DNA from: Mytilus trossulus
Taxonomy: Eukaryota
Direction: 5' to 3'
Length of the DNA: 64,000 nucleotides
Assembly (NCBI RefSeq): GCF_036588685.1
Contig: NC_086375.1
Span: forward strand, 15,934,001-15,998,000
Below are positions 4,903 to 59,172 of this stretch, piece after piece. A program made the position numbers and the translations under genes. Below the pieces are notes generated by a model that ran no database searches, was not told where the DNA came from, and was given only the letters and a program-made list of their open reading frames with translations. Numbering within the stretch: the first letter of the stretch is position 1; every line of letters begins with the position of its first letter.

Positions 4903-7900
4903 ATGGGGCTAAAGTTACTTATATTATGTGCCCTTGTGGTACTTAATCAAGCAGGTTTGTTATAGGCTAATTATATATTACTAATTTTGATTCAAATAAG
5001 TAACGATAAAAACGAATAATTTATTATTCAAACACACATGTGTATTTCGTAATAATTTATTATCCAAAAACACATGTGTATTTTGTAATATTGAATGATA
5101 ATGAGAAACTGATTATGATTATTGTAAAAATCGTGAAAAAACCCAATTCTGTGTATCGCATTTTTACTTCATATTATACTTGTTTTTTCGTTTATTGTTT
5201 TGTTCGTAAAACTATATAAGATCGTTCGTTTTCTTGCTTGAATTGTTTTGCATCTGTTATTTTGGGCTTAATAATTCTTCAAGTTCGTACTATGAAATAC
5301 TCGTGTCTGGTTGAGAGATGTTTCATTGTCAGTTATACCACATCTTCTTATTTTTATTATTAACTATGATATTCGTTTTCAGCTAAACTACCTAAATCAC
5401 AGACTGCCACATGTTCAAGACAATGTACAGGTAAGTCAAGTGAAACAATATTCATCCCAGCTCCTTTGTTCTACCAAGGGTAATCCGTCTCAGATCATCC
5501 TAGTTTGAGTTTCTTTGTTTTGCATCCTTTCCTTTTTTTTGTAACATTTTGACGGGAATGCCTAATCTAGCGTTATTTTATAATATAAACATCAATGTAT
5601 TCTTAAGATAATGGAGCTTTAAAGCCCACAAATAGAAATCCACATGCATTTTGATAAGATGCATTTCTTTATTTGCTATATAATAGCTGTATCTTTTACA
5701 GTCATGACAATAATCCCTTTTCCATAAAACCGAAATAATTCAAACGATCTATTAATAAAAGGTTTTCCCCATTACTTCGAACAGGGACAGTCTATATTTA
5801 TCCTTGTATTTTAAAAAATATAAACTTCCGTTGATATAAGTTCACTGTGTAACAGCATATATTGTCTTTTATGAAAAGGAGGATTTATTATGGTAATTTT
5901 CTTATTTTGCAGAATCGAAAAAATTTGGATACGAAACCGGAAAGACATACGACTATGACTACACATCAAAGGTGTCAACGACAATACAAGGGGCTTCCGA
6001 AGATAAAGCGGGAATTGACATGGCTGCAAAAGTTCACATCGAGGTTCAGTCAAAATGCGATCTTGTGCTTAAGGTAATAAAGAAGAAAACAAGTTAATTT
6101 AAATTCAATTACTAATCGTCATTAATTTTGTTGTTGTTAAAACTATAAGTAAACATTGTGTCATTAATATTATAAGTCTCGATAGATTGAATTCATATCG
6201 ATACATTTTCGTATTCAGAATCCAAATGATCTTTCCATTTTCAGGTTTCTGATGTAGTACTTACTGAATCAGACCCTAAATCACCAAACACAAGACGCAA
6301 TGCTGACGTCACAGGCGAATTCAAGAAAAGTCTTGAACAGAACCCATTGATGTTCTCCTTCCAAGATGGCCGTGTTGATGAACTATGTCCTTCTAACGAC
6401 GAACAGACATGGGCTCTTAATATCAAACGAGCAATCATCTCTGCTTTCCAGAACTCTATGGATGATTTCAGTCAAGAACAGAAAACCAAAGAGGTAAAAT
6501 TGTGTAGCACAATAATCTATGGAAAACCGATCATTCAGTTTTAAAATAACTCTATTCGTGTTTTTGTGTAGCTATTCGTTTTGCTCTATTTTGATTTTTT
6601 TTTTCTATTTTTCGATTATAACAAATAAGTCACCTCCTCCCGTAAGTGGGGCCAAGTCGTTATTCTTAACATTAAAAAAGAAAGTTATCATAAAATCTAT
6701 TATTATTCTAACTATTTCAATTTTTAACATTTACCGTATGTGATGAAATAAGAAAAAAATGAAATACTTTTCAGATGGATGTAACCGGAAGTTGTGATGT
6801 AAATTACTCTCTGGCTTCCAATGGGTGGTACACAATGACAATCAAGAAGACAAAAGACACATTAGGATGTGTAGATCGTCATGGTTACAAAACAGCCATG
6901 CAAGGAACACCATATAGAGTACCGTCTGTAAGTTATTATTCTATATGCCATTTTTTTTTAAATTAAGGGTATCGCAAATTATACATATTCTATAGTTGGA
7001 TTCACTTTCAAAACAATATTGTATCATGTTAAACAAATAGAGTAGATTAAAAACCAATGACTATGTTTAACTAAAACGGTTTTCATTATTTTTGTATTAT
7101 TGTTGTAGGAAATCCAGTCAATGCCATTGGTTAAAAGCACTCACGAATGTCAACAGGGAATCAGTAAAACTGGTATCCTTCAGAGCAGCAGTTGTGAGGA
7201 ACAACATGTTCTCCGACCATTCTCCAGAGAATCCAGAGGAGCTGTTACAGAAACAAAACAGACATTGAAATATATTACAGAGAGTCAAAGCAGATCTACA
7301 AAAGGTGAAATTGAATCAACAGAAACTATTATTATACTTCATGTCAAAATGCCAGATTTTGATTGGCTAATACGAGGGTGTCAATTTACTCTATTACCCT
7401 TCATGGAGACGCTTGATCAAGTGTGCGCTTTATTAAATACGACTCTATCCTATGACAAATACTTTATCACCCTTCACAGAGACGCTTGATCAAGTGTGCG
7501 CTTTATTAAATACGACTCTATTCTATGGCAAATACTCTATTACCCTTCACGGAGATGTTTGATCAAGTGTGCGCTTCATTAAATACGGATGTTTATGTAC
7601 AATTGTCATAGTTTATTACTTTGAATTTTAAAATTAATCGACAGTAATAACAGAACATTCAGTATAATAAATTAAATAACACATATCTGAGAGGGTGATA
7701 GAGCAGATTGTTACCCCTCGAAAAAACATTGTCAACCTTGGCTTCGCCTCAGTTGACAATGTTTTCTCGGGGTAACAATCTGCTCTATCACCCTCTCAGC
7801 TATGTGTTATTTATACGTTGATATATGCATCGCGAATCAAATAAATACTATTTAGAACTTTTTATCTACAAAACTCTTCCAAATATAGACGAAGTCCACA

Positions 7901-10900
7901 CGTCATTTGTTTCCTTGTAAAAAAAATTTAATACTACAGCTTATATGACCCGTTGTTCACTACTTAATGGCAAAGTTGACAATAGATGAATTTGTCTGTT
8001 GTGTTTACGTTCCCGATCAAGATAAGACCATAAGAGATATTACGCAAATTAATAACAATTTTGTGTATCACATTAACGTTCAAACGATATATAGATAATT
8101 TCCTAATTTAGTATTTCATGTTCAATTTTAGTGTCTACTGAAAAGAGAACAACACTGGCATTTGAGCATGCTTTTGACAACTCCAATTCTGCAAACGCAC
8201 AGAAGGAGGTTCTGAACAAACTGACAGAATTTTGCGAATTATCTAAAGATGCCGTGAAAGTATCCACAGCCAAACAATTTACTGAGCTTGTCAGACTTAT
8301 GAAAACGTTAGACAGTGATAGCATGGAAAGTGTCCACAAGAAAGTACATTCAGGAAAAGTATGTCCAAAGAATACAAAAGTCAGGTATGTATAATATATA
8401 GGAAATATACTATATATGTGATATTTTTTCAGTGCAGCGTTTGCCATTTACGACCTCAGTACTGTATGCCATTTACGACCTCAGTACTGTATGCCATTTA
8501 CGACCTCAGTACTGTACAATATTACATGATCGGCTAAATATTAGGTCAAATAATTCAAATTCTGCTTTCTCGTAGCTTTTATGTTGTTTTTTTTTATCAC
8601 ATTATCTCACATTTAACGTGATTTCAAGCATGACACCGGTCATTTGGTCAGAGTTTTAAACACATTTTCTTTTTCTTCAATACTTTGTAAAAATTTACCT
8701 TTCCAATCTAATGAGAAGTCTTAAATAATTGATACCGTAACTGCAAAAGAGCCTTTGCTTTATTTAAAGTTTAAAGTGTAAAACAATTGTTTTATAATTT
8801 GCAGGAAATTCTTCCTTGACGCCATTCCAATGGTTGGAACTAAAGCTTCTTTGAAAATGATGACACATTTGATTAATACCGACGAAGTTACCGGAGCTGA
8901 AGCTGATATGTGGATGACAAGTCTATCTTTTATTCAACATCCAACAAAAGACATGCTATTGGAACTGAAGGTATACACAACTCTTTAATTATTAACTGGA
9001 AACAAAACATTAAATGAATCGATTTCGTTTTCAAGATGTTAAAATGTAACGGTTCTTTGTAAATATGTAAATATGTGTATACGTAATGATAAAACCGGTT
9101 CTTTCAAATGTGTAAATATCTTTATACATATAGACAGTGACGGCTCTTTTAAATATAAAAGTTAATGTACATATGTTTCATCATAATGTATGGTGTTCAT
9201 GCTTTTCATTTTAGCCTTTGTTGACTAACACAAAGAACGGACAAGCCATGCTTGCAGTTTCATCCCTTGTGTACACCTACTGTAAAACATCTTCCTGTGC
9301 TAACGACATTGATATGGTAAACCTTGTTGCCAGCTTAGAAGACAAGATAGGTGTTGGATGCTATGCAGACAAGAACAATGTTAACAACGTAAGCAGTTTC
9401 ATTCATTTCTTAAAACATGTTGATTGTTCCTCGGAAAATTTACGTTTAAATTGAATTTGTCATATTAGACAACAATATTTTCAATATAGGATAATTCACT
9501 AATCTTTTATGTTTCGTTTCAGATTATCCGTGCCTTACGTGCCTTTGGAAATGCTGGTTTCTCTAGCAGTATCACAATGGTAAACAGTTGTTTGACGAGA
9601 AAAGAAAACCCGACAGAGGTTCGCCTTGCTGCAGCTCAAGCCTTCCGCCGAATGGCATGTGATGCAAACGTAATTAAAAACTTATAAATTATTTCTTATG
9701 ATAAACAAATCTATAATTTGACTTGTTAAATTGACGACATTATATTTTGAACTATTATCAAAATTGCCTTTATATATTTGTGTTGTTATAAGAGTCTGAT
9801 CACTGTTATGCAAAACTGTTAATTTGGATGTTACTGTTATCAAATATCATAATTGATTTATCTTATAATTTAAGGATAGGAAATGAAAAAACAATAATTA
9901 AAAACAGTGTATTTTAGACAAATATCGAATGTATTATTAATGCAAAATAATATACTTACATGCAAGAAATATATCTTCAAAATAGGATTTGTTTTCTTTT
10001 AGAGAAACGAGTTGATGACCATTTACTTGAATCGCGATGAGGATTCCGAAATAAGAATTGCTGCTTACCTAGGACTGATGACATGTCCTTCAAAGTCTAT
10101 CCTCAACAGAATCCAGACAACACTGGAATCAGAAGAAGTAAATCAAGTTGGCTCCTTCGTCTGGACTCACCTTACAAATCTAATGGAAACATCAAGTCCA
10201 CTGAAACAAAGCATAAAATCAATTTTATCTAATGACATACTGAAGAAAGAATTCAACTTAGAAAAAATGAAGTATTCCAGAAACTATGAAGCTTCATTTT
10301 TCCTAGAAAAGATGAACACAGGTGCCGCAATTGACAGCAATCTTATTTGGTCTTCTAAGTCTTTCCTTCCAAGATCAGCCATGACTAACCTCACCGTTGA
10401 TCTTTTTGGTCACTCTGTCAACCTGTTTGAGTTTGGAGGAAGAGTAGAGGGACTAGAGTATTTCCTAGAATCATACTTTGGACCTGAAGGATATTTTGGC
10501 AAGTCAAAGGATGTTGTCAAACAATCTGTAAAAGGAATTAGCAACAAAGCAATGGATAAACTGAACGAAGAGGTTAGCAATAGATTGAAAGAAGTTAATA
10601 GCCGTTCTTTTCATATTGTATTTGAAATCCATTCACATTTGCATTTATTCCTATTTTGTTTGTTATACATTAAGTGCCTACTCGTTTTATTTAAAAAGCA
10701 AAACTTATATAAAATAATCAGAAATGTAGTTCTTAACATAGTTTCGTACTTTTCTTCTTTTTCATCTTATAAATTACAGTATTTTTGATTAATATTAATA
10801 TTCTTTATTTTTGCAATTTCTAGTTTGGATCAACAATGGAAGAGTTCAAAGGAAGCATGTATTTGAGAATATTTGGCAATGAATTACAGTACATCAACAC

Positions 10901-13900
10901 CGACGATATCAAAAGTCTGATTGAAGGACAAAACTTCAACATTCTGGATTTCATCATCAATCTGGCCAAAGAGCAAGACTATTCTTTCACACAGAGCTTC
11001 ATGTTTCTAGATACCAGTATCATAATTCCAACAATGTCTGGTTTCCCACTTAACATCAGTTTAGACGGAAGTGCTACAATTGACGTTCAAGCTTCCGGTA
11101 AAATGGACCTTAGACAAATTCAGTCAAATCCCATGACAGTTTCCATCGATGGAAAAATTCGACCAAGGTAATATTAGATACTCAGATACACAATTTTAGT
11201 ATAAAGATCAACCAAAACAAAAGACCCAAAAACAACCAAACCAAAACCAAATGTCAGCTTGAAATACAACCTAAAACATCAGCAAATAAGCACATATATC
11301 AGTCAACAACAATATTTTGAATGGAGTTTTATGATTGTCTTCGCTGTTCATTCAAACATAAAATTTGCCATAATTTTTCGCAATAAATATCCTGTGGTTG
11401 ATGATATAAAAGAAATGAAAAACTATATCAACCAACAAATTTTCAAACTATAAAGTAATGATAATTGCTTTAAACAGTGAATACATAGAATCAAACAAGT
11501 CTGATGTTAATTTTTTTCTAAACAAAAATAAATAAATGAAAGACTATGCATGCTTATACGCCAAAAAAAAAACAAACCCGTATACCACAGTTGCGAAAGA
11601 ATGTAGATCTGAAAAGATATATATTCATACGCACGATTAAGAAATGCATATTTTCTAGGTAAATTTGTATATTGATCAATAAAGTATCTTTTTAATTCAG
11701 TGCTGCTTTGGAAGTGACAAGTCTAATGAGTGTTGATGCCTTCGTAACTAAAGCTGGAATGAAAATGGTATCTTCAGTGAACTCTGCCTCTGCTGTTGAA
11801 GGTCATCTGGAAATAAAAGGTGGACAACTCTTTAGTGCAGAATGGAAGACACCAGATGCAAAGACAGAAATATTTGAAGCAAAGTAAGTATGAAAATATT
11901 TTCATAATAAAATATTTAGGTCATGAATTTTTTTTTCTTTTACTCTTTAATATAACCAGTCTGGGTTTTTCTTGCACTTGAATGACAACCTTAACTTACC
12001 TCTTTCCATATCAACAGCATGGATTTTTAGAATAATTGACTGTTCTGTTCTTTTCTATCTGTTACATATTTATTAATCTAAAAAGAAGAAAAGGGAATAC
12101 AGTCTCTTATCCATATACATGTTAACTTTGTTACATATAAACCTTGCATAATTTATATAAATCTTTTTGCAGAACTTCATTCTTTACTGTTCATCGTGAT
12201 GAGACCCGTGAACAAAAGATGGTAACACAAAACAGACAAACAAAGAAACTATGCACTGGTGATGACATTGCACACGTGACTGGACTTGAACTATGTGGTG
12301 AAATTTCCTACCCTAATGCTTCTCTAAAGGCTGATTCTCCATATTTCCCCCTAACTGGACCATTGACAGCTGGTGTTACACTCTACAAGAGAGACAGCCA
12401 TACTGGTTACAAAATGGAGTATAAATTTGGAAAGGTAATTACCGCTTTTTACAGCTTACTTCTTTGCTTAAGACTAATGTTTAAAAATTATGGATTTATT
12501 TTTGATCACTGAAAGTAAGTCTTATTTTTCAATTAGGTAATAATACTTCCACCAAACATATCATAACAGGAATATAAATATATATATCATTAATCTTATT
12601 TTTTGTATTTTTTCCGACGTGAGGTATAATGGTTTTATTATTATAATTTATTTTAGACAAAATCTTTAGTGATTGCCAATGTAGGATTTAACACACCAGG
12701 GTCAAAGGTTGATAGAGAAATGAGACTCGGTTTCAATCTGAATATGAAGAAACATGATATTGAAATGATGATGCTGTCACCATGGAAAAAGGCAACCTTC
12801 AATGGTAACTTTTAATATATAAAGAATTATGCATTTTTTTTAATAACTTCAATGTTATTTTTTATTGACAATGCTATCAATTTTCACAGTAAAATTTAAT
12901 TCAGTATTAAGTCATGATTTTAAAGTTTGAAATCTTAGATAACATTATATCTATCAGGTATTATGGACTTCTTCCTTTTTATTATTTAAGTAAGAGATCA
13001 ATACTTTTGTTAATACTTTTTACAAAAAATAATCTATTTTATAGGAGCTGTCGATACCAAACAAAGACAATTAAATGGTAAATTACTTATTGACCAATCA
13101 GAATACTCAGTCAATGCAGCTTTAGCTAGTCAGAAGAAGTCTTCTAAAATGATATATACACCATCTGTAGAAATAGTCATACCAAAGAAGGATAACATTA
13201 AACTTGATGGAACTATTGAATATTTGGCGGGAACAACTTTGGATTCTGCATTTACCATTCGTGGAGTTTCAAAAGAACCAATCAACATGAGATGTGAGTT
13301 ATACATCAATATTCATAGATGTTAAAGTCACATCCCCTTGCAAAGAATACCAAAATAAATAAACAATAAATCAAAACGAATCAGCATGCCAGATTTAAAA
13401 GAGGGACGAACATTACCAGAGGGACAGTCAAATACCCAAAACGAAAATAAACTGACAACGACTGGCTAAAAATGAAAGAAGAAAGACAGACAAACAATAG
13501 AACACATGACACAACATAGAAAAAGTATTACATCTTTTTCATGAAATTCAATGATCCGATATACTTTAAATGTTAAAATAAAAACCAGCAAATGAATGCT
13601 TTGATGTATACAAAACAAATGTATTATAGGCATAGTTTCAATTTATGTTTATTTTCTTCATACTTTACATATACATATTTTTAATTTAAATACTATATTT
13701 AATTCTACATAAAAGAGAAGTTTAAGTGTATGGTTTTTGCTGTTTTTTTTGTAGTGAACATGCTAAACAAGAAGGTTATAAAATCAATCAAGGGCAGTTT
13801 TACAATGGACAAAAAAGAAGAATATAGTTTTGAGACCAGAATGCAGACACTAGTAACTAAACAATCTTTGAGATACAGTCCATTTATCTCAGTTAAAACG

Positions 13901-16900
13901 CCAGCGAAACTGTTGATGGGTCTTGGCGGTTCAGTGGAAATGAAATATAAAAAAGCTGCAAAGGTTGACCTGACTGTTACCGGATTAACACGTTCTCCAA
14001 TGAAATATTTTGGTTAGTAATTATTCTTTTCTAAAGAATAAAATAGAAAGTTTATATGTAAACTGATTTTGTTTTGAAGAACGATGTCTATATGGTACCA
14101 AATATTTTGTTTTCTAGGCAACAGACTTGAAGATAAAGGGAAGTCACATTCATACCAAAAAGGCACTGGATACCAGCATTTCGGTGTCAGTTGGTAAAAA
14201 ACACACCTTGAGCACATCAGTCTTCCTGAAAAATAAATCAAAGAAATTGACATCTGTTTCTGGTGGAATTTCCCTTTCATTGAATGAGAAATCCCTTTCC
14301 ATATCAAATGTCTTCATCCAACAGAACAACCAGAAATATACCAACGACTTCGCTGCCACTATCGGTAAACAAAGAACAACGATAAAATCTGCCATCAAGA
14401 GCATGTCAAATATTGAATTCGAAATATCTAATGATGTAACACTTCCAGAAAGAAAACCTTTTACCATTGCTGGTCAGCTAAACGGGAGCCCTAGGGATTT
14501 CAGAGTAGGAGCACAGATTGGAAAATCATATGTTTTGGCATTTACTTCCCAATACAAACCAAAGACATTGATCAAGATGTCTGGGGATGTGAAGGTTAAC
14601 AGCAGACGCGTGACAGCTGAAATTGAAGCAATGAACAACAATCCTCAGTATACCGGAGCATTTGATGTTAAGTGGGATGCTGATAAAGATGAATCAAAAA
14701 GAATAAAGTTTGTAGGAGATTTGACATACAAAAACTCCATGGATGTAAACGCTAGACTAGAACATGTCAACCCATTCACTAGTGTCTTATCGAGTTATAA
14801 TCATATAGTTGATATAAATACTCAGGGCCATTTTGATATCTTTGTGGGAGGGAAAGAGGAAATAGCTTTGGATCTTAATCTTAAAAACAAAGATGAAGGA
14901 AGAGCTGGAACCCTTAGAATGCAGACACCTGTCACTGGATTAGTACAAATGAATTATGATTTGATGTCAACTACCAAACAATATCAGAACTCAATGGATA
15001 TCACATGGCAGAAATCAAACAAAATTGGAGTTTTAGTAAATTTGGACAAACCATTCAATGCCAATAAATTTCATGGAATAGTTACAGTTAAAACACCATT
15101 CAAGGGTTTCCAAATGTCCTCAGTAGAAGTGGACCATGAATACAGCGGAAAGGTAAAAAGTATGCTGAAAACTGAACTCAACAACGAGAAAGTAAAAGTT
15201 GATATTAACTACAGTAACGATGACCAGGATGTAAACGGTGTAATTAGTGTAAAATCGTCATTATCCAGTTTGAAAACAGCTTCTGTAAACTTCCACCATA
15301 AAACTACAGACAACAAATACCAGAACGCTTTAGCAATGGAGCACAATGGCAAAGTATACCAGTATGAAGGTCAAATGAATCACAGATTTACAAAAGGAGG
15401 ACTGAAGAATAAAGGAAAAATTGTCTTTAATCTACCAAACAACAAATATGATGCAAATTGGGATCACAGCATTACCAGCAATGAACTCATTTCTAAAATG
15501 CAGTCAAATATTAATGGTAAATCTTATGAATTGGACGTAAATGGAAGACAAGCCATAACATTTAGTGAAGGGGGAGTATCATTTAACCTGAAGATTAAAT
15601 CTCCACTTATGGACGATATCCTTCTGCGTGTTGATCATCAACACAGACCATCATTGATAGACAGTTCAGCAACCTTATCTATTAATAGTAACGTTATGAT
15701 GTCTGGTCATTTAGACTACAAGAGAGAAGCTGGCAAGGTGATGTCAAAACAGTCTTTCAAAATGTCTGATATCACTTTTGAAACTTCAATTATATCTGAA
15801 TATGCCCGTTTTCCAATGTCAGGACAAATTAATATGAAGTTGAATGATAATGAAATCGATGCAAGTGGAACCTTTGATCGTCAGCAGAACAGCCAAAACG
15901 GTAAACTTAAATTTAGGTCACCATTTACCAAACCTATTGTATTAAGTATTGATCGAGCAATTGATGGGGAACAGATCATTTCATCATCTATTGAGTATGG
16001 AAAAACTGAAATTATGGCCATGGAAAACAGATTCAGATGGGACAACACAAAAATTGTCAAGATATCAGTTGTAACACCAATAAAGTCAGTCAGGAAATTT
16101 GAAACATTACTCAAGTTTGATGGAGGTATAACTGCTTTCAAAACAGTCGCAAGTTTAGAAATTGAACCTACTTTTAGACCAATCCAGATGACATCAGAAT
16201 GGAACTCTGTCAATGGGCTCAATGGAAAAATTCGTTTGGAAACTCCATTCCAACAAATACCATACAGTCAAATAAGTTTGGTTTCTAAACCCACTTCTAG
16301 AATGACATCATCAGATCTAGTTATTGAATATCTCCCAAGACGAGAAATAATCATGAAATCAAGCTACATGGTGCAGAAAGATCACGTTGAAGGCAGTTTA
16401 GACATAAAAACTCCCTTCCATGACATGCAAACAATGTCAGCATCAGTTAAACATGTAACTCGAAATAACGCCCTAAATTCTGAGATGACCTACACCTGTC
16501 CTAAAGGCACAAAATACGTCGCTGACATCAACTATAAATCTGGTATCAAGAAAGAGGGGTCAGTCAGTCTGAAAATGGATAAGAAAAGAATAAGCGTTAA
16601 TGGTATGGTCGACATGATGTCTGGATACCCAGCTGGTTTCTTGAAGACATCAACACCCTTTACAAAGGACATTATTGTTGATATTAAGCAGACGAATCAA
16701 GCTGAAGTAATTGTGACGTCGGGCTCGGTGAGATACGATAACGGAAAAGAAATATCATTGGAAAACCGATTCCGTTGGAATGATGCCTTTGTGTTCACAA
16801 CAGCTCTTGCTACACCATACGAATCCATGAAAACAATTAACTCTGTAATAGAGGCTAAAGGAGACTTACGATCTTTCTCTCTTTTAAGCAGCATTGAAGC

Positions 16901-19900
16901 AGAACCAATCACAAAGAAGTTCTTAATATCCAGTGCCGTAAATACAAATGGTGGATTCGATGGTAACTTCCGCATTGAAACCCCATTCGAGGCCATTCCA
17001 TTTAGTCAGATAACCGTCTCTAGTCAAAGAAGTAGCGGATCCACAAGAACAGTTGCTAATATAGAATACCTTCCAGCTAAATATATCAGTGTCAAATCAA
17101 GTCACACAATGGATTTGGATAACATTGATGCAACTTTTGAAATTCAGACTCCATTCGCCAAATTTCAACATGCATCTGCTTCAATAAAACACACAAATGA
17201 CGACAAAGGCATTTCATCTTCTGTAGGAATCGAATATCCTAAAGGCAATATATATTCTATAGACACTTCCGTTAAAAACGCCGAAAGGAAAGACGCTTCC
17301 ATCACCGTCAAAAGTCCATACAGCAAACCAGTAAGTCTGTCAGTCTATCATCAAGGAAAATATCCGTCAATGGAGACACACGGTGAACTACAGTACCAGG
17401 GCAACCAGAAACACATATTGGACATAACATTTAATAATAAAGCTAACTTTAAGTCATCTGTGTCATACAAGTGTCCATCTATGGACAAAATATCTTTGGA
17501 GATAAACCATAAAGGAAGCATGAAACAATTCAATTCTCTCGTCAAAGCACAATACAAGAAGGGCGAGCCACATCAAATCGAAATAATCTTTAAAAATCTG
17601 GCTAAAATGCAAGGATCTTTGACAGTCAAATCAGCGTTCATGGATGACTTTAAAGCATCTTTCCATCATATCGGGTCCTTGAGGAATCTTAAATCTCATG
17701 TTCAATATGCTTACGGTAAAATGACTCCAGCCTCTGCTGATGTAGCACTTATTTCTGGAAAACGTATCAAGGGATCCGTGAAATTGTCTGCACCAATGTT
17801 TGAGGATATTACTATGACTCTTATTCACAAGGGAAATCTGAAAAGCTTCAGAAACAAGATGAACCTAATCTACAGCAAGAAACAGAAAATCAGTACCGAT
17901 TTTAATTTCCGTCTGGCTAAAGTAATGAAAGCTACATTTATGTTTGTTTCTCCTTTTAAAGGATATAAGAAAGTCATTGCCAACGTGAAACACGAAGGAA
18001 CATGGAAGAGCTTCAAGTGTGATGCCAATATTAAAAAAGGAAAAGACGTTGTTAAAGCCAACATGAAAACATCAATAGGGTCTAAATTCAATTGGGAAGC
18101 AAGTGTAGAAACTCCAGTTGCCGGTTGGAAGAAAATGAATGCTGCTGTATCGCACGAAGGATCACTTTCTAATTTTAAATGCCATGCCGAGATAGGTCGA
18201 GGTAAACAAGACATGGTCGCTGCAGACATACGATTTGCAATTAATCCATCCATTGATATTCTGTTGGCTGCACAGACACCTTTTGTTGGCTACAGCAATG
18301 TCAAGGCATCTTTGTCACATCAAAAATCAGACAGCAAGATAAAATCTCATGCTGAAATAACATACTTCAAGAAAGATACAATATCTGCAGATATCTTGAT
18401 AAACAAACCAACAAGAAGTGCTGATATTTCCATAAAGACTCCATTCAAGAAATATGAAAAGATGGCAGGTTCCTTCTCACACACTGGTTCATTATCAGAA
18501 TTCAGTACAAAGATGGATTTGGCAGCAAACAAAGATAAATACTCAGCTCAGATCAATTTCAAGACTGTAGGTCAACTGTCAGCAGAGATGAAAATATCAA
18601 CACCCATCGTCGGCTATCAAGAAACCGATCTTTCCTTTACTCATAGTGGAAGCTTAAACAATTTCCGTTCACGAGCAAATATTCTTTTTCACAAGAAGAA
18701 GAGTGTCGCTGATGTCTCATTTAACACTCAGTGGTGTAGAAGGACAATTGACATTGCAGACACCCTATACAGAAACTGTAAAAGCTACAATTATGCATAG
18801 CAATGAGGGAAAAATGAAATCTTCTTCAAACATTGCATATGGTAAACAGACCATTTTTGATTTTGATGCTTTGTTCAGTCAAAGAGGACAAACATTTGGA
18901 ACCGTCTCCATCAAAGCATTGAAGGTGCCAAAAATGGCAGCAACTTTTGAATACCAGGGAGTTATATTCAACAATAAAGCAACCATACAGGCATCACTTG
19001 GGAAAGACAAGATCATGGTTGAGACACAAATGGAAAGCAAATCTGATGTCTCAGGAAGAATTTCCATTTCAACTCCATTTGATTCTGCAAAGACGATGTA
19101 TATGGTATATTCTAAAACTGGACCAATGAATAAAATGAACGGTAACATTGAAGCTGGAATCAACGAACAGAAGATTACGACTGACATAACTATTTCATCT
19201 GATGACGTAACAAAGGCATCTGTCACACTCCGAACACCATTTTCTGAACTACGAAATGCTGATGTATCCATTAGATTTTCTGGCACCGCTAAAAACTTTG
19301 ATAGCCACAGCGAAGTGACTGTTAACGAAAAAATGGCTGAAGCTGATCTGACAGTCATTGTGAATGATCGTCTTGACATAAGAGGGTCTATGAAAACTCC
19401 ATTTACTAAAGACTTTGTCATCCGAATGAACCATGATGGTGCATTGAACAGTTTCAAATCTTCTTCTGATGTATCATACGGATATGATAAAATTAGTGGA
19501 CAAATAACAACTGATTTGACCAATGGAGTACAAATTGACATCACCCTCAAAACTCCATTTTCAAATGATGTGATCTTTGCTACATCTTCTAACTACGATT
19601 TCAAAGACTTCCGATCACTTTCTCAGTTAACATACAGTGGAGCTAAACAACACGAATTAGAAGTCACCTTCTCTGCCGTTAAGGAAAGAAAATCTCTGAA
19701 GTCAAATGCACAAGTTACCTACAATGGAAAATCAGTATCAGGAAAGGTTGACTTTGAAGGTGGAATGAGAAACTTCAAATCTGCAGGAGAGGCTAAATAC
19801 AATAACCAGAAAATAATGGCAGAAATCCAATTCCAGTCACTGAGAAGAATAAATGGACAATTTTCATTGAAAACACCATTTTCGTCCGATTTTCTCCTAT

Positions 19901-22900
19901 CCTTCAGCCATCAAGGTCAGATACCAACTGCTTTTACATCAGCTGCTTCGATGTCATACGGAAAGATATCCCATGATATTCAGGCATCATTTAACCATGA
20001 TGGGTCATATAAGAAGTTCTCTACTAATGGTCAGATTAGTTACAATGGCAAGAGAGTATCTTCAGTCATTTCCTTTGATGCTACTAGTGACATAACAGGA
20101 ACAGTGACATTGAAGTCACCCATGACGGATGACATAATTGTTTCTTTCTCCCATAATGGAACACCATTGACATTCAGTAGCATTGCCAAAATTACTTACA
20201 GTGGATCAATGAAACACGATGTTCTCATAACATTCAATCATGCCGGATCAATGATGAATTTTAACACTAAAGGCGCTTTATCATACAATGGCAAAACCAC
20301 ATCAGGGGAAATCGTATTTGATGCTATTAAAGACATTGAAGGTAAATTAGAATTAAAAACTCCTATTACAGATGACATAATTGTAGCAGTTTCTAACGAA
20401 GGATCCTTAAGGAATTTCAAATCTTGTCTCAAAGTCACATACAAAGGACAGTTACAACATGATGCAAGCCTTAAATTTAACTTCGACGGATCAATGATGC
20501 AGTTTGGAACAAAATCATCTTTAATGTGTGACAGCAAAAAAGTATCCTTCGATGTTAATTTTGATGCCACCAAGGATATTGAAGGGAAAATTACATTGAA
20601 ATCGCCATTTACCGAGGATATGATTGTGGCCTTCTCACACGAAAACACGATGAACAATTTCAAAACCTGTCTCAAAGTTACTTACAGTGGAGAACTGCAG
20701 CATGATGCCAGTCTTACCTTTAATATGGATGGAACATTGGTTAAGTTTACAACTAAATCAGTTTTTACCTACAACAACAAAATGGCCTCTACTGCCGTCA
20801 GTTTTGATACAACAAACATTCTTGAAGGCAGAATAACAGTCACAACACCATGGACAAATGAAATCATTGTAGCTTTTTCAAATGAGGGATCTATACAAAA
20901 TTTCAAAACCTGTCTTAAAATTACATACAGTTGTTCTTTGAAGCACGATGCCAGTTTTTCATTCAGTTTGGATGGATCAGTCAGAAAGTTCTTTACACTG
21001 GCTTCAGTGAAGTACAATGACAAAATAGCTTCCGCTGAGGTAACTCTTGATTCTAGAAAAGACATTGTTGGAAAGATCACCTTGAAAACACCAATGTATG
21101 ATGACGTTATCATTGAGATCGCCCGCAACGGTAACTGGAAAAACTGTTTGTCCTTTGTTCAAATCACCTACAATGGCGCTTTGCAACATGACGCAAGAGT
21201 AAGCTTCAAGTTGATCAAGAAACCAACAAGTATCCAGGCAAATACTGAGGCAAGTTACAATGGCGAAACAGTATCCGGAGACATTTCTATTGAGACATCA
21301 TCTGGAATTGATGGAACCATGACTGTTAAATCACCATGGAGCGAGGACATTACCACAATTGTTAAATACAACGGAGAGCCAAAAGATTTCACTGCCCAAC
21401 TTCAGCTGAATCACAAAGGCTCTGGTCAATATGAAGTAAATATAAGACATACAACAACTGGTGAAATGAAGAAACTTTCAACTGCTATCTCTGCGTCCTA
21501 CAACGGCAAAGAAATGTCGTTTGATGGTTCATATGACTTAAAAGACAACAAGAACGCTCAAATGACTTTCAAATCACCATTCACCAAAGATGCATTTGTG
21601 AAAATATCTTCAGAAGGAACAGTTCAAAGATTTAGCTCAAATGTAAAACTATCATATGGCGAGAAGACCCATGTTTTGACTTCAAAATTCAATATGATCA
21701 TGACTGATTCCAAATTAGGTTCTGCAGTTGAAATATCAGTCGACAACCAGAAAGGATCTATTGACCTCCTTGTTGAGTACTCTGATGAATACAAGGTTAA
21801 AGTATCTGCCAGTTCTCCACTTACTGACGACATTGAACTAATGTCTTCTGCAAAAATAAACCGTAACAATCTTATTGGTTCATTACTGATTAAACTCGCA
21901 GGAAAAACCATCCACGACAGCAGTTTCAGCCTGACAAGAAGAATGGGAGAAAACCAATTTGTCGCCAATTTAAATGCTGTATACAACTCTAAAAATGTCA
22001 ATGGGGGATTTTCAATTGTTACATACAATGGAATTGACGCCAAAATGACACTAGAGACTCCAGTTGCAGGATACGAGAAGATTGCAGCCAATTTCTTATA
22101 CGAAACTGACAGGGATACAATTACGGCACAAGTCAATGGAAACGTTGGATCTAACAATGTAGAATTTAATGCAGTTTTTGATAAGACTTCACCATTCAAT
22201 GGAAAAATTAATATCAAAACTCCAGTCAGTGGATTAACCGAAATGTCAATGAACGTAGTTTTCAACAATAATCCTTCAAACTTTCGTCTCACATCTGATT
22301 TCGCTATTGAAGGTCAAAACATGTATGACCTTAGTTTTGAGCATATCTCCTCAACAAGAAATATACAAGGAAGTCTAGAACTGAAAACAACAATTTTAGA
22401 AGACATTGACATCAAGTATGACATCTCTGGAAGTTTAACAAAGTCTTCATCTTCGTTCAGTGCCTCCGTTGGAAGTAAGAACCAAATTTCATTGAACACT
22501 TTGACCAACATTCAAGGCAGGCAAATGGGAGAAGTAAAATCAACCTTAAATATCAACATTGCTGGTTTCACAAAATCAGCTGAATTAGAATTAAAAAGTG
22601 GAAGAAGCTTCAGCGATTTCACTTCTAAAATAAGTGGAAAAATTGATAACGATGAAATCTCTGTAGAAACCATATTTAAAAGTCAACCATCTTATGAGGC
22701 ATCGGTTAAGGTAGAAACACCTTTCAAATCAGCTAAATCAATGTCAGCTACGATCAAGAATGTTCGTAAATCAAATTTTGTCAGCACATCAGCTGTTGTT
22801 GCACTTTCCCCTGAAAAGGTTTACGAAATAAGTCTTAATTATCTCAACCAGAACTTCAGAAAGATGGATATAAAAGCCGAAGTAAAAACTCCAGTGAAAG

Positions 22901-25900
22901 GACACGAGTTGATGAGCTGGGTATACAGGCACGGGACTGACCAGGTTCTATCTGTATTTTCGAACTACGAATGCTCAACTGGAATTCAAATTACTGGTGA
23001 TATTAAACTGTCACCAAGATCGATCAACATGGATGTCAGGACTCCGTTTCAAGCAATTCGATCATTGTCTCTTAAGGGAAACTTAGAAAGACAAAATATG
23101 ATCTATAGTTTAGACACTTCTTTTGAGATAAATAAGAAATCAGTTAAACTATCTGGTTTAGTAGACTTAGAAAGCAGACCAATGACAACTAGAATCGAGC
23201 TGAAGACTCCATTTAAGGGACTTGAATCTTCCGAGATCAATTTGTCATGTACAGGAGACATCAAAGATTTGCGCGCCACAGTCGAAATTGTAACTCCTTT
23301 GATTAAACCAATCAATTCCGAAGTACATATCCGTTACGATTCTCTTTTGGACATGGAAACCACTGCAATTCTTACCACAGGGTTTAAGTCCTTCGAACGA
23401 TTGAGTGTTTCATTGGTCAACAAGAAATACAGAAATGAATACCAAACACATGTTGAAACCTCGTGGAATAGAGAAAAGACCATTTCATTTGATGCTTCAT
23501 GTGATGTTTCGGAGATATCTAGTGGAAAGCATATCAAGACATCCATGTCAATTTCTACACCTTTCGAAGCCCTTAAAACTATAACTGTCAATATGGGACA
23601 TAAATATTCCACTGGTAACTACATGCAATCGGTCTTCTTGGAATACAACGGGAAACCTCTACTAGATATTGACACATCTTATTCAAATATTGAGCATCAC
23701 ACAGTATCCATAGTAACAAGACACCCTAGACCTATGAACTTCAGAATCGGAGGTAACATGGAAGCCGAAAAGATAAACAGCGATATCAGCTTAAACTGGA
23801 ATACAGACAAAACAGACAGCAATATGAATATGGAAGTCTTTTATAGTCATAACAATAATAAGTGTAATTTAGCAGTTAGATTTGTACATCCGTCTAAAAC
23901 CATCGGATTTAGAGGAGAATTAAAACGTTCAACAAGTCATAACTTAGTTTCGCTTGATGTAAACATAGATGAAGCCAATGTATTTGGATATACCTATGAT
24001 TGTAAACACGGCAATGATGACAGAGATACAAGTATGAAATTCCGTTTCCCAAACAGATCTATCATGTTTACAAACGCAATTCAGAACCGTCTTGGATCTA
24101 AAATGGTAACTGGTGCCTTCTTCTGGGATGCTGATGGTGACCAGACAAAGAAAGTATCTGTTAAAGGGGATATAACTCCAAGTGAAAATGGTGTAGATGC
24201 CAATGTTGTTCTAGAAATGCCAAGTATTGGACAGGTAATGCAATATTTTATGTAACTTTCTTGTAACTTAGTCAATGACAAATTGAATTGTTCAATTTCT
24301 GTAATCGTATTTTCCTTACCGCCCCTGATGATCAAGTTGAAAGAAACATTGTATTAAGAATCTTATTCCTATCGATGAATGTTAAAATAAACAACGTTTT
24401 TTCTGGTTATTAAAAAACCCTATTCTATTTAATCTATACTGTATGGATAAGTCTCATAACTTTTTTTTAAACATTAACCGATATTCATTTACTTTTTTTT
24501 ATAAATAGGATGTAAAGCTTGATTCCAAAGTGAAATTCAACAAGGGATCTGTTCTGTTTGATGGTAAAACTGCATTCCAGTATTCTAAAGATTCAAGGAA
24601 GACACTAATTCTTTCCTCACGACTGGAAGATCTTTCATCTGGAACTGACACCAACTACAGCTTTAACCTAGGAATCAAACATCCGTATACTACTGTTGAC
24701 GTTGAGGTAACTTCACTCCTAGAATCATCAGTTTACCAAAAGATGGCTTCTGTCGATGTTAAATACCAAACAGCAAACAAAATGGCAAAGAACTTTGGAA
24801 TAATGGGTGAAATCGATAACTTGAAGAAGAGCATCAAGATGGATGTAAGTTATTATTTTACTAACATGTTTGGGGATGAATCATCAGCAAAAAAGCGTTA
24901 TTTATAATGCCATATAACACCCGAATAATGCCATATAACACCCGAATAATGCCATATAACACCCGAATAATCAGTAGAGCTTGTAGTATGTAGAAGCACA
25001 AATAGAGAATTACTTGAATTAAGAAAGGTGAAAAGAGGTCAACAAAAGGGCGGAACTCGAAGAATAATAAACAGAGAAAACATTTTAATGTCCATGCAAG
25101 ATTACCATTTTAGAGAATAAATATAACAAAATACATTAAATAATAAAAGAAGTAGCTAAAAATCCTGTCAACTAGCTATGTTTTGTTAAGAGAAAAATTT
25201 GAAATGTGTAAGCAAATATAATATAGAAAAGATATGTTTTATCATAATGTATACATGTATTTAAAAACACATATATTTTCATTTACAGCTGACCACACCT
25301 ATTAAATCAATCAATATCCAAGGAAATGTGCAAACTACAGCTCCATACAAAGTGTCAATTAAGAACCTGTATGATAATGCCAAACCAGTCAGTGCAGATA
25401 TTGTTTTTGACCCATCAGATGTCAGTATTGATGTCAACATGAACTATGATATTGGTAAGAATGAAAAGCTGACCCAATTATTTTTAATATTTAAACTAAT
25501 ATGTAAATTTTCTATCAACTAATGTTTCAACTAAGTATGTTTTTAATTACAAAGATTTCTCCTCTTTTTAGGCAAAGTATGTTTTAATAGTAAAGGTTGC
25601 AGCTTCTATAGGCAAAGTTCTTTTCAAAGCAAATGTTGCAACTTTCTCAGACAAAATATGTTTTTGAGTTAAAGTTGCTTCTGCCTCAGGCAAAGTTGCC
25701 CTTCGATGATATTGCCTGCTATTTTTATGGTTAATTGTTTTTGTCTAAACAGAAAAGCCTTCTATGTTTTTTATTACACAAACTTGGATAAAAGTTTTTT
25801 CGAAGACAGTTATTACAAAGCACGTTGTCTGTTCTATTTATCCGGTATACTACATCTGCAAATCTCAGACTTTTATACGACGATTAAAGATAATGATCTG

Positions 25901-28900
25901 TGTACTTATTATAGAAATAGGTCATGATAAAAATATGTAGCATTCGGATTGAGCTCAATATAAGAAAGGTATACTTCTTAAATATCGAAGTAACAAAAAC
26001 TATAAGCATGTACAACATTTTAGTATTTTACCCTGATATTGTTTCAGACAATCCACAAAACATTCTTCATGTGAATGCTAAAATGTCAGACGAAAGTGGA
26101 ATCACAGCCGAAGTTTTCAGAGATGTGGACAGTAAGAGAGTTTCCGATACGCTCATCAACCTGAAACTGAAGACTTCCAAGATACTCCATACACGTGTAC
26201 ATTGGAACCCAGATCTTTTGAAAACCGTAAAGGTTTGTTGTACATTAAAAATTATGGGAAAACATTCATCAGTGTTAAACATGAAATTCCTTAATTACAA
26301 ATTAAGCAAAACATTTATCTTTTTTACATCAGTAACTTGTTAAGGTGGAAATAATAAGATAAACTAATCAAACAAAATAACAACTTCATTAATATTACAA
26401 TTATGAATAGAAATTATATAGAAACAAATTGAATTTAAAAAAAAAGTCTTTTGGTTTTTGCATTATTTTTCTTTTAAATAATACGTCCGTTGTTTAAGCT
26501 AATCATAATGTCTTCTTTTGTAGTCTGTTGGTTTGAACAAGATTCATAAATATGGCAATGGCATTAACAAAGCACTTCAAACATCATGGATTGCTGTAGA
26601 ACAGGAGGTCCAATCAAAACACAGATTGATCATATCTGCTATCAAAGAAGACATGAAACCATACATCAATTTTATGTCAGCTAGAGTTACCGAACTTCAA
26701 AAAATGAGACGCAATAATGATTACTACTTAAATGATATCGTAGGACATTTCCAAACAACACAAACTGTTATCAGGTAGTTAAAACCAAATCATTATCTTT
26801 AATTTTGTTTCGTTAATTTTCACTATTATTGCAATTCAAAGTTTTGTTACTTCTTTAAATATAATACAAAATAAAGATGTTACTATAACAATAAGTAAAA
26901 AATATTCACAGTAATACCGAAAGTTAAATCTTAAACAGTTATGTGTAAAACATGTAGAGAAGTCTAAAAACTAATAGAAGGAGTGTCAACAAATGGTGAA
27001 ATATCAAAACGAGCTTAAGAAGTTAAATACTTTTAATTAAACACTTTTAATTTCTATGAAAATGTTTGACTATAATTCTGACAATTTCCTTTATTATTTT
27101 AGACATCAGATGAAATCACTTGAGAATGAAATCAACAGTCTAACAAAAGATATGGACTGGACACTATTTAATTTGTATCTTGCTGAAATTACTGAATTAG
27201 TAAAGGTATATTTATTTCTGTGATTTTGTTTTAAGTTTTGCACTCATATTGTTTTATAGCGTTTCTATTTGTATATGATTGCTATTCCTTGTCTTAAACA
27301 TTTTACAACAATAACAACTATGAATTATAACATTTTACTACAATAACAATAATGAATTGTAACATTTCACTAAAATAACAACTATGAATTGTAACAGTTT
27401 ATTACAATAACAACTAAACAACTTTGAATTTGAATATTTCACTAGAATAACTACGATTTGTAACATAACACTACAATAACAACCATGAATTGCATCAACA
27501 AACTTTATAATATTTTTTCTTCTTTAAGAAGAATAACACATTAATATTTTATTTACATTACAGTTAATGGAAGACATGTCATTACAGTACTACTCTGAAG
27601 TTTTAGATTTTACACAGTCACAGACAACACAGCTGTCAAACACCATTGAAGGAGTATATACAAAATATGGAAAACAAGTAACAGGTATACATCAATATCA
27701 ATGATTAATTGATACTCAGGATATAAATATCAGATACTACTCCGTAAATAGAAACGATGAATTAAACCTAATATAAAGTACAAAAGTATGTAAAAGGAAA
27801 ACATTAATACTAAAGTCCAATTTAAAAGCTTTTTATTTTGCCATTTAAATTAGGGACTTTCCTTTTAAAACATTTCTCGGAGTTCGGTATTTTTGTTATT
27901 TTACTTTTTTACGATTTGATGTATTTTCAAGTTTAAACTATTTCTTATCTATCTTTCAGATTCAGTTGCATCTATTTCAAGCAATAAAATTTTGGAATCA
28001 GTTCGTTCAAGATTACCAACAATTCCAATGAAACAAATGGCTGACAGATACAACACAGTTATCTACAATGCAAGAGAATCAATCAATACTGGGCTAATAA
28101 AAACACTTCCAACCCCAGTATATCATATGGTGAGTTATACATTTGAAATATACTCCCAACCCCCAGTATATAATATTGTGAGTTCTACATTGGAAATCCA
28201 TCTTTAACTTGTAGACATCTTCAAAGTATATCATTAAAATGCTAAAAAAAAATATCAGCAAAGCAAAATTTGATTATAATTTAAATGAAACCTATTTTTT
28301 GTTGAATTCTATCATTTTTTTTATAAGTTGGTTATCTTTTATTGTGTTCAAAGTTAATTCGATAAACTAAGTGGTATTTGAATGTTTCTTCTGTTCTTTT
28401 CAGGCTTCATCAGCATATAAATACTGGGAGATTGAAGAAAACATCATATCAGTTTTTATCAAATTCGTCAATTTTATTAAAAAAGACATTGGAGACGAAT
28501 TCAGTAATATCAAATACTTAATTACTGATGTTAAGAAAACAAAAGTCACAGTATATGACCCAAAGAAAGGTCACTTTGAAATGGACATTTATCTTCCACT
28601 AGAAATGAAATCTTTAACAGAAGTAAAAAGGATAGCCAATCCAATTGAGAATCTCAGATCTTACATTCCACAATCTAATCCACTCCCATCCTTGGGCGAT
28701 ATTTGGTCTCATGCAGTTATTCCATCGTTTGGTGGTGAGTAAAATAAAGAGATCGACGTACCGTTTGAATGCAAAACCAAACATTTTTTTTTATAATACT
28801 CCTAATTAACGAGTTCAACGTTCTAAATGACTAACCCGTATGCTATTTTTGTAATTTTTGTAATACTATGCACAGCATACATATGAATTTATGTTTGAAC

Positions 28901-30111
28901 TTAAACTTCATTTTTCATGTATATTGCATTCTTTATTCAGATGATTATTTAAGTCAATTTGACGCAGCGATCATTGCATTTGTATCATATTCAGTTCTAT
29001 GATATTATAAAGTTAAAATATATGATAGATAAATAATTATGGAAATTTCACGCTCAAGAGAGCCGAAAGATACCAAAGAAACAATCAAATTCATAAGTCG
29101 ATAATTAATTGACAACGTCATGACAAAAAAACAACAACACCGGAACAAAACAATCACAAAATTTAACTTAAAGCAACAAATAAGAATAGGCAAGTTTGTG
29201 CACAGTATCAAATTCGTATACTACTTGGTTATGAGTATGTTTCCACATCTCCATTTACAAAAATGTGTACCAAATTAATTGAATATATTTCAGCTCATGC
29301 TTACATCAAGGGAGATCATTTCACCACCTTTGATGGACAAGAATTCGATTTCAATGGAAGATGCAGCTATGTCCTTGCACGTGACTTTGGCAAGGACAAG
29401 TTCAGTATCATTCTTAATTACATGGGACGACAGAGCAAAAAATTGGTTGTCATGACCTCCACACAAAATGTTCAAGTTGCTCCAAATGGAAAGGTAAATA
29501 TTCTTCGGATCTTATGTAACTAAGTTTCTTAAAGTTTAAAAGATGCATTTAAATTATCAAACTTCATCTGAGAAAATAAATGAATTTTATAAACTTTGCC
29601 ACAGACGATATATTCTTTTCTGCATGTATTGAATTCATTGTATTGCTAATTCATGATGAGTGCTTTCCGTGTAAAAATTAGGATTTGATGTTCAATAACA
29701 AATATTTATACCAAATTAAATAAACGATTATCTTCCTTTTTAATGTTTTCTGCTTTCTTAAAAACAGCGTATGAATATTCCCTTCGCAATACTATTATTT
29801 ATGTGTTATATTATTTTCAGGTCCGTGTTGATGGAGTAGAGAGCAAGCTTCCATATGCCTCAAACGAGATTAAAATTTCACAAGTAGGAGACAACATTTA
29901 CGTCGATGGAAATGGTTTTGGTGTTGTCAACAATATCAAATCCGCGTCCTATGACATTGAACTCAGCCATTGGTTCCATGGAAGAACAGGTGGTCTGCTT
30001 GGTGTCCATGACAACGAGAGATTTGACGACATGATGATGTCTAACAAACAGATCACATCTGATGCCAACGCTCTGGCCAATTCTTGGAAAGTCCAAGAAA
30101 AATGCCGTTAA
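4903..30111 (+). CDS. Apolipophorin/apoB-like large lipid transfer protein (vitellogenin superfamily), 28 exons, ~5,290 aa, one frameshift in this assembly
   Basis: GT-AG exons in consistent phase: 4903-4954, 5383-5430, 5913-6073, 6245-6493, 6775-6927, 7109-7304, 8132-8384, 8805-8970, 9215-9388, 9523-9669, 10003-10572, 10824-11167, 11701-11883, 12173-12434, 12657-12804, 13045-13293, 13755-14012, 14125 (or 14118)-24234, 24509-24844, 25289-25454, 26048-26232, 26524-26774, 27103-27205, 27564-27684, 27960-28129, 28404-28734, 29294-29493, 29821-30111. Signal peptide MGLKLLILCALVVLNQA. LLTP motifs FGYETGKTYDYDY, EMDVTGSC, LRAFGNAG, DSEIRIAAYLGLM, EEVNQVGSFVWTHL, SFLPRSA, MYLRIFGNEL, PTMSGFPL. VWD motifs HFTTFDG...CSYVLARD and GLLG. 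Confidence 0.93.
7329..7813 (+). mobile_element. Intronic non-autonomous element with inverted repeat, CCAAT motif, 73-bp tandem repeats and terminal palindrome (element A)
   Basis: TTATTATACT (7329) is inverted at AGTATAATAA (7661). ATTTTGATTGG at 7356. 73-bp units start at 7387, 7460 and 7533. Palindrome 7673-7813 is centred on GGC-TTC-GCC (7740-7748). Confidence 0.75.
8442..8516. repeat. 25-bp tandem repeat x3 (intron 7)
   Basis: TGCCATTTACGACCTCAGTACTGTA at 8442, 8467 and 8492. Confidence 0.95.
14125..18730 (+). CDS. Giant exon 18, 5' reading frame (amphipathic beta-strand region)
   Basis: ORF 14127-18800 shows alternating hydrophobic/polar pattern and recurring (K/E)TPF and H.G motifs. 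The pattern ends at ...ADVSFNT. Confidence 0.9.
18730..24234 (+). CDS. Giant exon 18, 3' reading frame (after +1 frameshift)
   Basis: ORF 18703-24255 continues the same pattern from SGVEGQLTLQTPY. Donor CAG|GTAATG at 24234 is in phase with the next exon. Confidence 0.9.
24905..24971. repeat. 21-bp tandem repeat x3 (intron)
   Basis: TAATGCCATATAACACCCGAA at 24905, 24926 and 24947. Confidence 0.95.
27305..27492. repeat. Degenerate ~32-bp AT-rich minisatellite (intron)
   Basis: Repeated ACAATAACAACTATGAATTGTAACATT-like units. Confidence 0.7.
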
Positions 30112-53968: not shown

Positions 53969-54182
53969 CTTAAATATACATATAAACCATCTAAATACAG
54001 TGTATAGAATATATTGTTTTGATCTAACCTAGATGTTAGTTTGAAAAACAATTGTTATCAACAGAAATATTTCATCTGTTTATTTTAACCAGATTAAACC
54101 GCTATCGCAACCAGGAAGTCACGTTAACAAAAAATATATTAGTTTTAAGCTCAGCTTGTACATTTTGTCAGTTGTGTCAGGT

Positions 54183-59148: not shown

Positions 59149-59172
59149 TTGGTGCTGTGACCAGAGGATATA

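Follow-up and report, generated by a model that had tools for sequence, protein, structure and literature searches.

A giant exon of a tandemly amplified Mytilus trossulus lipid transfer protein gene is predicted to encode a modular, apoB-like amphipathic beta-sheet

APOB has a 7.6-kb internal exon, and the apoB belt had no solved structure until 2024. In human apoB-100 (PDB 9E9R, 9BDT, 9BDE) an LPD_N head and a DUF1081 domain accompany a long amphipathic antiparallel sheet with strands of ~10-11 residues and interstrand inserts of 30-700 residues; nine inserts make up half of the C-terminal part. For this belt PMC11839476 gives 120 strands and 61 x 4 nm. We analysed a 64,000-nucleotide (nt) stretch of Mytilus trossulus DNA (NC_086375.1, positions 15,934,001 to 15,998,000, forward strand; hereafter the window, in whose coordinates positions are given unless a contig is named), which carries a gene with a ~10.1-kb exon, the giant exon. 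From sequence, its product is best read as a large lipid transfer protein of the APO type that has a signal-peptide-like N-terminus and is probably secreted. We consider it probable that the locus encodes a secreted APO apolipoprotein with an apoB-like, insert-free and longer belt that evolved stepwise inside the exon, from four working copies and one likely pseudogene, the copy in the window.

The mussel protein shares with apoB-100 the LPD_N head, DUF1081 and the long sheet of similarly short strands, and apoB-100 is the best whole-length structural match to the two mussel segments modelled below. The two proteins differ in several respects: the mussel exon alone would hold ~250 strands (an extrapolated figure) against 120 in apoB; no inserts occur in the modelled segments and the beta moment is dominant throughout the exon; visible tandem modules and a C-terminal VWD domain belong to the mussel protein only; and the belts are without sequence similarity. 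Insect apolipophorin-II/I, compared by description only, has the same APO domain order according to PMC1783640 and PMC8545670, with ~3,300 amino acids (aa) and furin cleavage, whereas the mussel protein has 5,445 aa and no consensus furin site (R-x-[KR]-R) along its whole length. Vitellogenins, of 1,600-2,400 aa according to PMC1783640 and PMC10799875, have no DUF1081, a domain that the mussel protein carries and that PMC1783640 reports as specific to the APO family. Molluscan gene models of the orthologous bivalve clade that holds the mussel protein are named 'apolipophorin-like' and annotated as uncharacterised (Mytilus 5,445, Ostrea 5,435, Saccostrea 5,420, Argopecten 5,998, Mercenaria 5,270 and Mya 5,308 aa). 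A literature search outside subscription journals returned no paper that describes the exon or its modules, proposes a belt for APO proteins of invertebrates or treats the bivalve arrays, and a word search of the main text of the oyster genome paper PMC9679249 found no mention of lipoprotein genes.

A search of the mussel's own genome with the frame junction described below identified five tandem copies on contig C3:15,776,010-15,964,111, with gene starts 35-46 kb apart, the window copy being the fifth and last. In all four upstream copies the giant exon lies in an unbroken stop-to-stop frame of 3,379 codons and is two bases longer than in the window. These copies 1-4 each have 30 coding exons totalling 16,338 nt and encode 5,445 aa followed by one stop, and the intact protein matches named gene models of M. 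edulis and M. galloprovincialis in length and is 97% identical to them. The gene model follows splice motifs up to 11167 and RNA joints after 11699, so that support for the exons before 11699 comes from splice motifs and this homology and not from RNA. Pfam searches of the window exons gave a match to Vitellogenin_N (PF01347), DUF1943 (PF09172; E 2e-31 on exon 10003-10572) and VWD; DUF1081 (PF06448) is recorded in P0002, a named Mytilus protein of 95% identity, from which the order Vitellogenin_N, DUF1943, DUF1081, VWD is taken, and was also found on scanning the paralogue P0016. The giant exon itself had no match in Pfam, PDB-sequence or PDB-profile searches, leaving the beta region without a Pfam family. 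The protein ends directly after VWD (30108-30111), without the C8 domain found in many relatives, and the oyster orthologue has the same end. Introns vary between copies: short tandem repeats occupy 7305-7820, after exon 7109-7304, in an intron whose length differs between copies, and an intron of copy 3 has a 2.6-kb insertion with a reverse-transcriptase-like fragment (L019:831-2075, minus strand) that had no Pfam match.

The giant exon is real and unspliced, because a spliced RNA contig (contig 16 of run X8, 16,222 nt), joined at GT..AG introns on both sides, runs without a break through 14118-24232. The exon is bounded by an AG acceptor at 14116-14117 and a GT donor at 24235-24236; contigs of runs X2 and X11 cover it partially (16017-24232 and 18469-24232), and none of the 15 joints listed, of 17, falls inside it. 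The RNA evidence consists of contigs from four runs, two labelled as RNA and two guessed to be RNA yet spliced at GT..AG. The original prediction had described a single exon of ~10.1 kb beginning at 14125, and holding about two thirds of a ~5,290-aa protein. The unspliced exon is confirmed, and it does form 62% of the intact protein (3,373 of 5,445 aa); the single open frame, the start and the total length are not borne out for the window copy.

In a six-frame scan the interval consists of two long frames, 14118-18797 and 18658-24252, because two bases have been lost after 18724. The missing dinucleotide is found in the four sister copies by alignment and in contigs of 4/4 RNA runs; a short intron or a programmed frameshift at this point is thereby ruled out. 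A second lesion lies upstream of the giant exon, where two exons that copies 1-4 and the mRNA contain (235 and 217 nt) have been deleted; between 14012 and 14118 the RNA contigs of 3/4 runs carry 452 letters equal to these two exons. The start at 14125 and the ~5,290 aa are explained by a cryptic acceptor that would bridge the 1.1-kb, two-exon deletion and give 5,292 codons. This acceptor was used in no RNA contig, and the resulting frame would stop at codon 2,763; the intact gene has the exon at 14118, with 10,119 nt. The window copy also has the most private codon changes, 41 (16 silent, 25 replacement) compared with 16-32 in the other copies. At 38 exon sites, drawn from 40 of 263 listed rows and by construction differing from the window, the RNA letter equals that of copies 2 and 3 in 38, of copy 4 in 35 and of copy 1 in 34.

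We thus regard the window copy as a likely pseudogene beside four intact tandem copies. Transcriptional silence does not follow from this, because the sites compared all differ from the window and contigs drop rare variants. Both lesions could instead be assembly errors, or the array could be inflated by mis-assembled haplotypes: all RNA contigs examined hold the two bases, and the window copy is known from the assembly alone. The 2-bp loss, though, lies outside any homopolymer, and the 1.1-kb loss is a lesion distinct from it; the giant exons of the five copies are 99.2-99.6% alike, all ten pairs differ by 40-77 nt, their intron insertions differ, and five forms exceed two haplotypes. These differences make an assembly artefact improbable.

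The sequence of the giant exon has a strong and regular amphipathic signal. Its mean beta moment is 0.372, against 0.259 +/- 0.006 in 30 shuffles, and beta outweighs helix moment between about residues 800 and 4950, past both exon ends, ahead of a helical stretch near residues 5000-5200. The motif [KERQT][TS]P[FYW] occurs 22 times in the exon (0.5 in 500 shuffles, maximum 3) and H.G 15 times (4.1 in shuffles, maximum 11), with TP-aromatic and H.G motifs spaced by 52-56 or 80-81 residues. The alternating strands with TP-aromatic and H.G turns that had been noticed in the sequence are thus well above chance. No separate repeats emerged when the exon was compared with itself by BLAST; they were revealed by lag analysis and a hidden Markov model (HMM), with 33% identity at lag 81 over the whole 81-aa repeat block (local maximum 46%), and with 39 modules found in the protein by the 54-aa module HMM and 0 in any reversed sequence.

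Two segments of the exon, together 1,156 of its 3,373 residues (34%), were modelled with AlphaFold2 from alignments of 16-17 rows. Exon residues 1172-1760 (589 aa) gave 44 strands with a local confidence (pLDDT) of 89 and a global confidence (pTM) of 0.51, and residues 1920-2486 (567 aa) gave 42 strands (pLDDT 84, pTM 0.47). Both are all-beta meanders with short turns and no inserts, in which a 54-aa module corresponds to four strands and an 81-aa module to six. One strand face is 77-78% apolar and 6% charged, the other 16-18% apolar, and shuffling within strands halves the difference. Among the Foldseek matches listed, only apoB100 entries exceed a template modelling score (TM) of 0.2 (0.28-0.39 and 0.23-0.26 for the two segments), and VIA-align, which did not align chains of more than 3,000 residues, aligned apoB 9bde over 505/589 residues (Z 8.2, root-mean-square deviation (rmsd) 22), the longest alignment among the 50 matches listed. 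A continuous amphipathic antiparallel beta-sheet like that of apoB-100 is therefore predicted for both segments, in line with the apoB-like sheet originally proposed. The models average 13.45 residues per strand, which, extrapolated from a third of the exon and scaled on 61 nm per 120 strands in apoB, would give ~251 strands and 127 nm for the exon and ~297 strands and 151 nm for the whole beta region; closed as a single-turn ring, such a belt would surround a particle 40-48 nm across.

Several points weigh against the likeness to apoB. The TM to apoB is below 0.5, and E-values fail to separate apoB from teneurin; teneurins in fact rank first by Foldseek E-value, at rmsd >50, and bacterial beta-barrels reach a higher VIA-align Z (up to 16), over half the model and at rmsd 23-33. 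Meanders of this kind are common among folds, the exon and apoB have no match in PDB sequence and profile searches, at pTM 0.47-0.51 long-range curvature and closure are not predicted, and the face composition is a measure taken within single strands. We rejected teneurin, DDB1, LRP2 and the beta-barrels as generic sheet matches (Foldseek TM <=0.17, rmsd 25-57; barrels ~half the model).

Bridge-like lipid transfer proteins (VPS13/ATG2) have a repeating beta-groove fold. No protein of this type is among the fold matches listed for the two segments, which does not exclude the family. The mussel sheet might twist into a long groove or tail that shuttles lipid between particles and cells, as proposed for the head-and-tail insect LTP or as in the bridge-like proteins. 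The models leave the curvature free, insect apoLTP has the same domain order, LTP particles are a lipid head with a hinged tail according to PMC4486166, and the mussel sheet is without inserts that might cover a spherical particle. Insect apoLTP (Drosophila 4,333 aa) indeed has the same four Pfam domains and 31-35% identity in the N-terminal region. It differs from the mussel protein in having half the beta span (1,770-2,170 aa) and 3-9 TP motifs, and in a quick tree of 30 rows the named apoLTPs form a separate clade (support 99), with crayfish dLp/HDL-BGBP on its own branch. Since apoB is also the best whole-length fit, we think a groove or tail quite unlikely and keep to the apoB-like belt.

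A close invertebrate parallel to this belt is the decapod dLp/HDL-BGBP precursor (Astacus 4,889 aa, Scylla 4,831 aa), a member of the APO family like the mussel protein, with 37% identity in the N-terminal region. In crayfish its beta-like span takes up 3,851 residues of the 3,989 that follow position 900, the HDL-BGBP piece included, and it contains 19 [TS]P[FYW] motifs where 2.5 are expected, so that TP-aromatic turns and a long beta region are common to both; a profile built from three mussel modules matches a shrimp member of the group in 17 stretches (E 1e-39). The precursor is cut at two furin sites and is without VWD, whereas the mussel protein has no such site and keeps VWD. The mussel module HMM finds 1-2 modules in crayfish dLp/HDL-BGBP and 0-2 in the long insect proteins, and the module sequence is thus conserved mainly among lophotrochozoans.

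Proteins of the same architecture occur in molluscs, annelids, nemerteans, priapulids, hemichordates, chelicerates, crustaceans and insects. In a first quick tree, of LPD_N, the mussel protein groups with bivalve proteins of mostly 4,700-6,000 aa (support 97), and shorter bivalve proteins form a clade of their own; this tree and the one above are unrooted, were made without bootstrap and leave out Vtg, MTP, apoB and apoLp-II/I. The 3,300-aa insect apolipophorin was thus the wrong yardstick for calling the protein oversized and lineage-specific, and neither term is supported: 28 of the 188 homologues listed are longer than 5,445 aa, including insect proteins of 6,100-6,600 aa, and the crayfish beta span of 3,851 aa compares with ~4,000 aa in the mussel. 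An insect APO-type group of 5,600-6,600 aa (P0109, P0123, P0127, P0128, P0175, P0176, P0190, P0215, P0219) is uncharacterised by its source names; four of its members are in the tree, distinct from apoLTP, and the beta span is 3,850-4,280 aa where measured.

Exon length varies between paralogues and relatives. Two further paralogue families in the same genome have the same exon boundaries as the window gene, and across the three families the giant exon encodes 1,836, 2,823-2,969 and 3,373 aa. The second array comprises eight tandem copies at C3:36.14-36.62 Mb (L028-L039, L045-L055; protein ~4,960-4,990 aa), of which seven on the minus strand have an open giant exon of four different lengths and the inverted eighth has a stop in the exon. 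Gaps of 26, 78 and net 146 aa, all in frame, distinguish these copies, which stay open. The third paralogue, a single gene at C1:43,680,441-43,685,981 (L043), has the 1,836-aa exon, with the C-terminal part more broken up, and the relative P0004 has one extra 81-aa unit. A search with the three-module profile matched 273 clusters in 1.84 billion. Among the 84 listed matches of at least 1,500 aa, 66 are without head, tail and VWD, 35 of these ending at the mussel exon end, and 23 of the 84 are stand-alone open reading frames (ORFs) that fit both exon ends, at 1,592-3,763 aa; in these animals the exon has apparently been annotated as one ORF by itself. Two more stand-alone ORFs with the same modules, P0013 and P0253 (4,625 and 4,824 aa), suggest exons near 14 kb. 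Recent repeat periods differ by lineage, with 81 aa in mussels, 52 in Argopecten and 54 and 55 in two other proteins.

Growth by duplication of modules within the exon, as first proposed, is in keeping with these length differences in three paralogue families and 23 relatives and with the steps of 26, 78 and 81 aa; we judge module-wise exon growth to be well supported in mussels and suggestive across molluscs. On the other side of the balance, the net 146-aa gap in one copy is no multiple of the module length, and the tests on indel size in 33 homologue pairs are marginal for multiples of 26.7 (17/45 near a multiple vs 11.6 expected, p 0.05) and post hoc for multiples of 53.5 (15/27 vs 5.1 expected, with events <40 aa and repeated events dropped).

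Tandem amplification recurs in mussels and oysters: Ostrea edulis has at least nine copies of 5,435 aa in one record (P0008, P0144-P0150, P0153), 98.2-99.8% alike. A 221-aa 'apolipophorins-like' model also sits among these oyster copies. The protein could accordingly be a bulk storage or yolk-type lipoprotein, in which copies raise the dose and belt length drifts by slippage without effect on particle size. Near-identical tandem copies (five here, eight of the paralogue, at least nine in Ostrea edulis) and copies within one array that differ by 26-146 aa and are still open would fit this proposal. It has to contend with the presence of DUF1081, which the family description in PMC1783640 reports as absent from vitellogenins, and with Biomphalaria, where, according to PMC10799875, Apo genes peak in the digestive gland and a true Vtg serves as yolk protein. 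A storage role seems rather unlikely to us as the explanation, and it is compatible with the belt model, the two not being exclusive.

For the apoB-like belt that we prefer, the LPD_N head would be lipidated in the secretory pathway, the hydrophobic face would cover lipid, and one uninterrupted sheet of ~250 strands would wrap the lipid particle as the apoB100 belt does. A phospholipid disc would be the likeliest particle shape, because the strands are ~10 residues long and there are no inserts to cover the faces. Unequal crossing-over or slippage in the intron-free exon could add or remove hairpins (26-27 aa) or modules (54, 81 aa); such steps would keep both frame and sidedness, and belt length could therefore change stepwise. 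The result would be a regular, repeat-built, apparently insert-free belt family whose length varies more than twofold within one genome. The length of apoB reportedly sets particle circumference (Spring 1992), and the mussel paralogues offer a natural series for this claim; should the particle data not bear it out, the protein would be ordinary for its family apart from its unusual length. The recurrent tandem arrays of mussels and oysters suggest a product made at high dose, so far uncharacterised.

Discoidal lipoproteins of crayfish and Nereis are 40-60 nm across, and the match to the estimated 41-48 nm is a lead only, the crayfish precursor being cut. PMC8416765, which describes large discoidal lipoproteins of both animals, states that the scaffold protein in Nereis is unknown and leaves unexplained how HDL-BGBP binds lipid. 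The mussel protein is a candidate scaffold for such invertebrate discs and possibly a modular scaffold for large nanodiscs. A wider generalisation, that many protostomes make an insert-free belt from a single elastic exon, with a length that is adjusted hairpin by hairpin and determines the circumference of the particle, is put forward tentatively and is on present evidence doubtful. If true, the three mussel paralogue exons would provide beta-sheet nanodisc scaffolds of ~22, 35 and 41 nm, and the two shorter paralogues would reach ~30 and 43 nm with the ~630 residues of belt beyond the exon counted in. The large discoidal lipoproteins of crayfish and polychaetes would then be built on this belt as well, and HDL-BGBP would carry lipid without an LPD_N domain because it is a furin-cut piece of that belt.

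Table 1. Features of the window copy of the gene, in window coordinates.
Feature	Position	Strand	Remarks
First coding exon	4903..4954	+	ATG and hydrophobic signal-peptide-like stretch, by eye
Sixteen exons: Vitellogenin_N (LPD_N), open beta-sheet (DUF1943), DUF1081, first belt strands	5383..14012	+	
Remnant intron, 105 nt	14013..14117	+	Left by the ~1.1-kb deletion that removed exons of 235 and 217 nt
Giant exon	14118..24234	+	10,117 nt in the window copy; 10,119 nt = 3,373 aa (residues 1356-4728) in four intact copies
First block of 52-56-aa four-strand modules	15918..19551	+	[TS]P[FY] at the start of most; exon residues 601-1812
2-bp deletion private to the window copy	18724..18725	+	Frame shift; stop codon 18798-18800
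Nine tandem 80-81-aa six-strand repeats	19873..22056	+	Exon residues 1920-2647
Second block: 51-60-aa modules and 28-29-aa half modules	22717..23556	+	Exon residues 2868-3147
Eight exons: end of beta region, then alpha-helical periodicity near residues 5000-5200	24509..28734	+	RNA joints, moment profile
Last two exons: VWD domain and stop codon	29294..30111	+	

Three other features were noted in the remainder of the window. A reverse-transcriptase-like fragment with a weak RVT_1 match lies at 46218-46845 on the plus strand, and a secreted-looking gene on the minus strand (51430-54028) combines a coiled-coil-like 339-aa frame with a C1q exon (PF00386, E 8e-10). At 59161-63488, on the plus strand, there is a Bel/Pao-type long terminal repeat (LTR) retrotransposon with several frames (DUF1758, RVT_1, Peptidase_A17, integrase and DUF5641).

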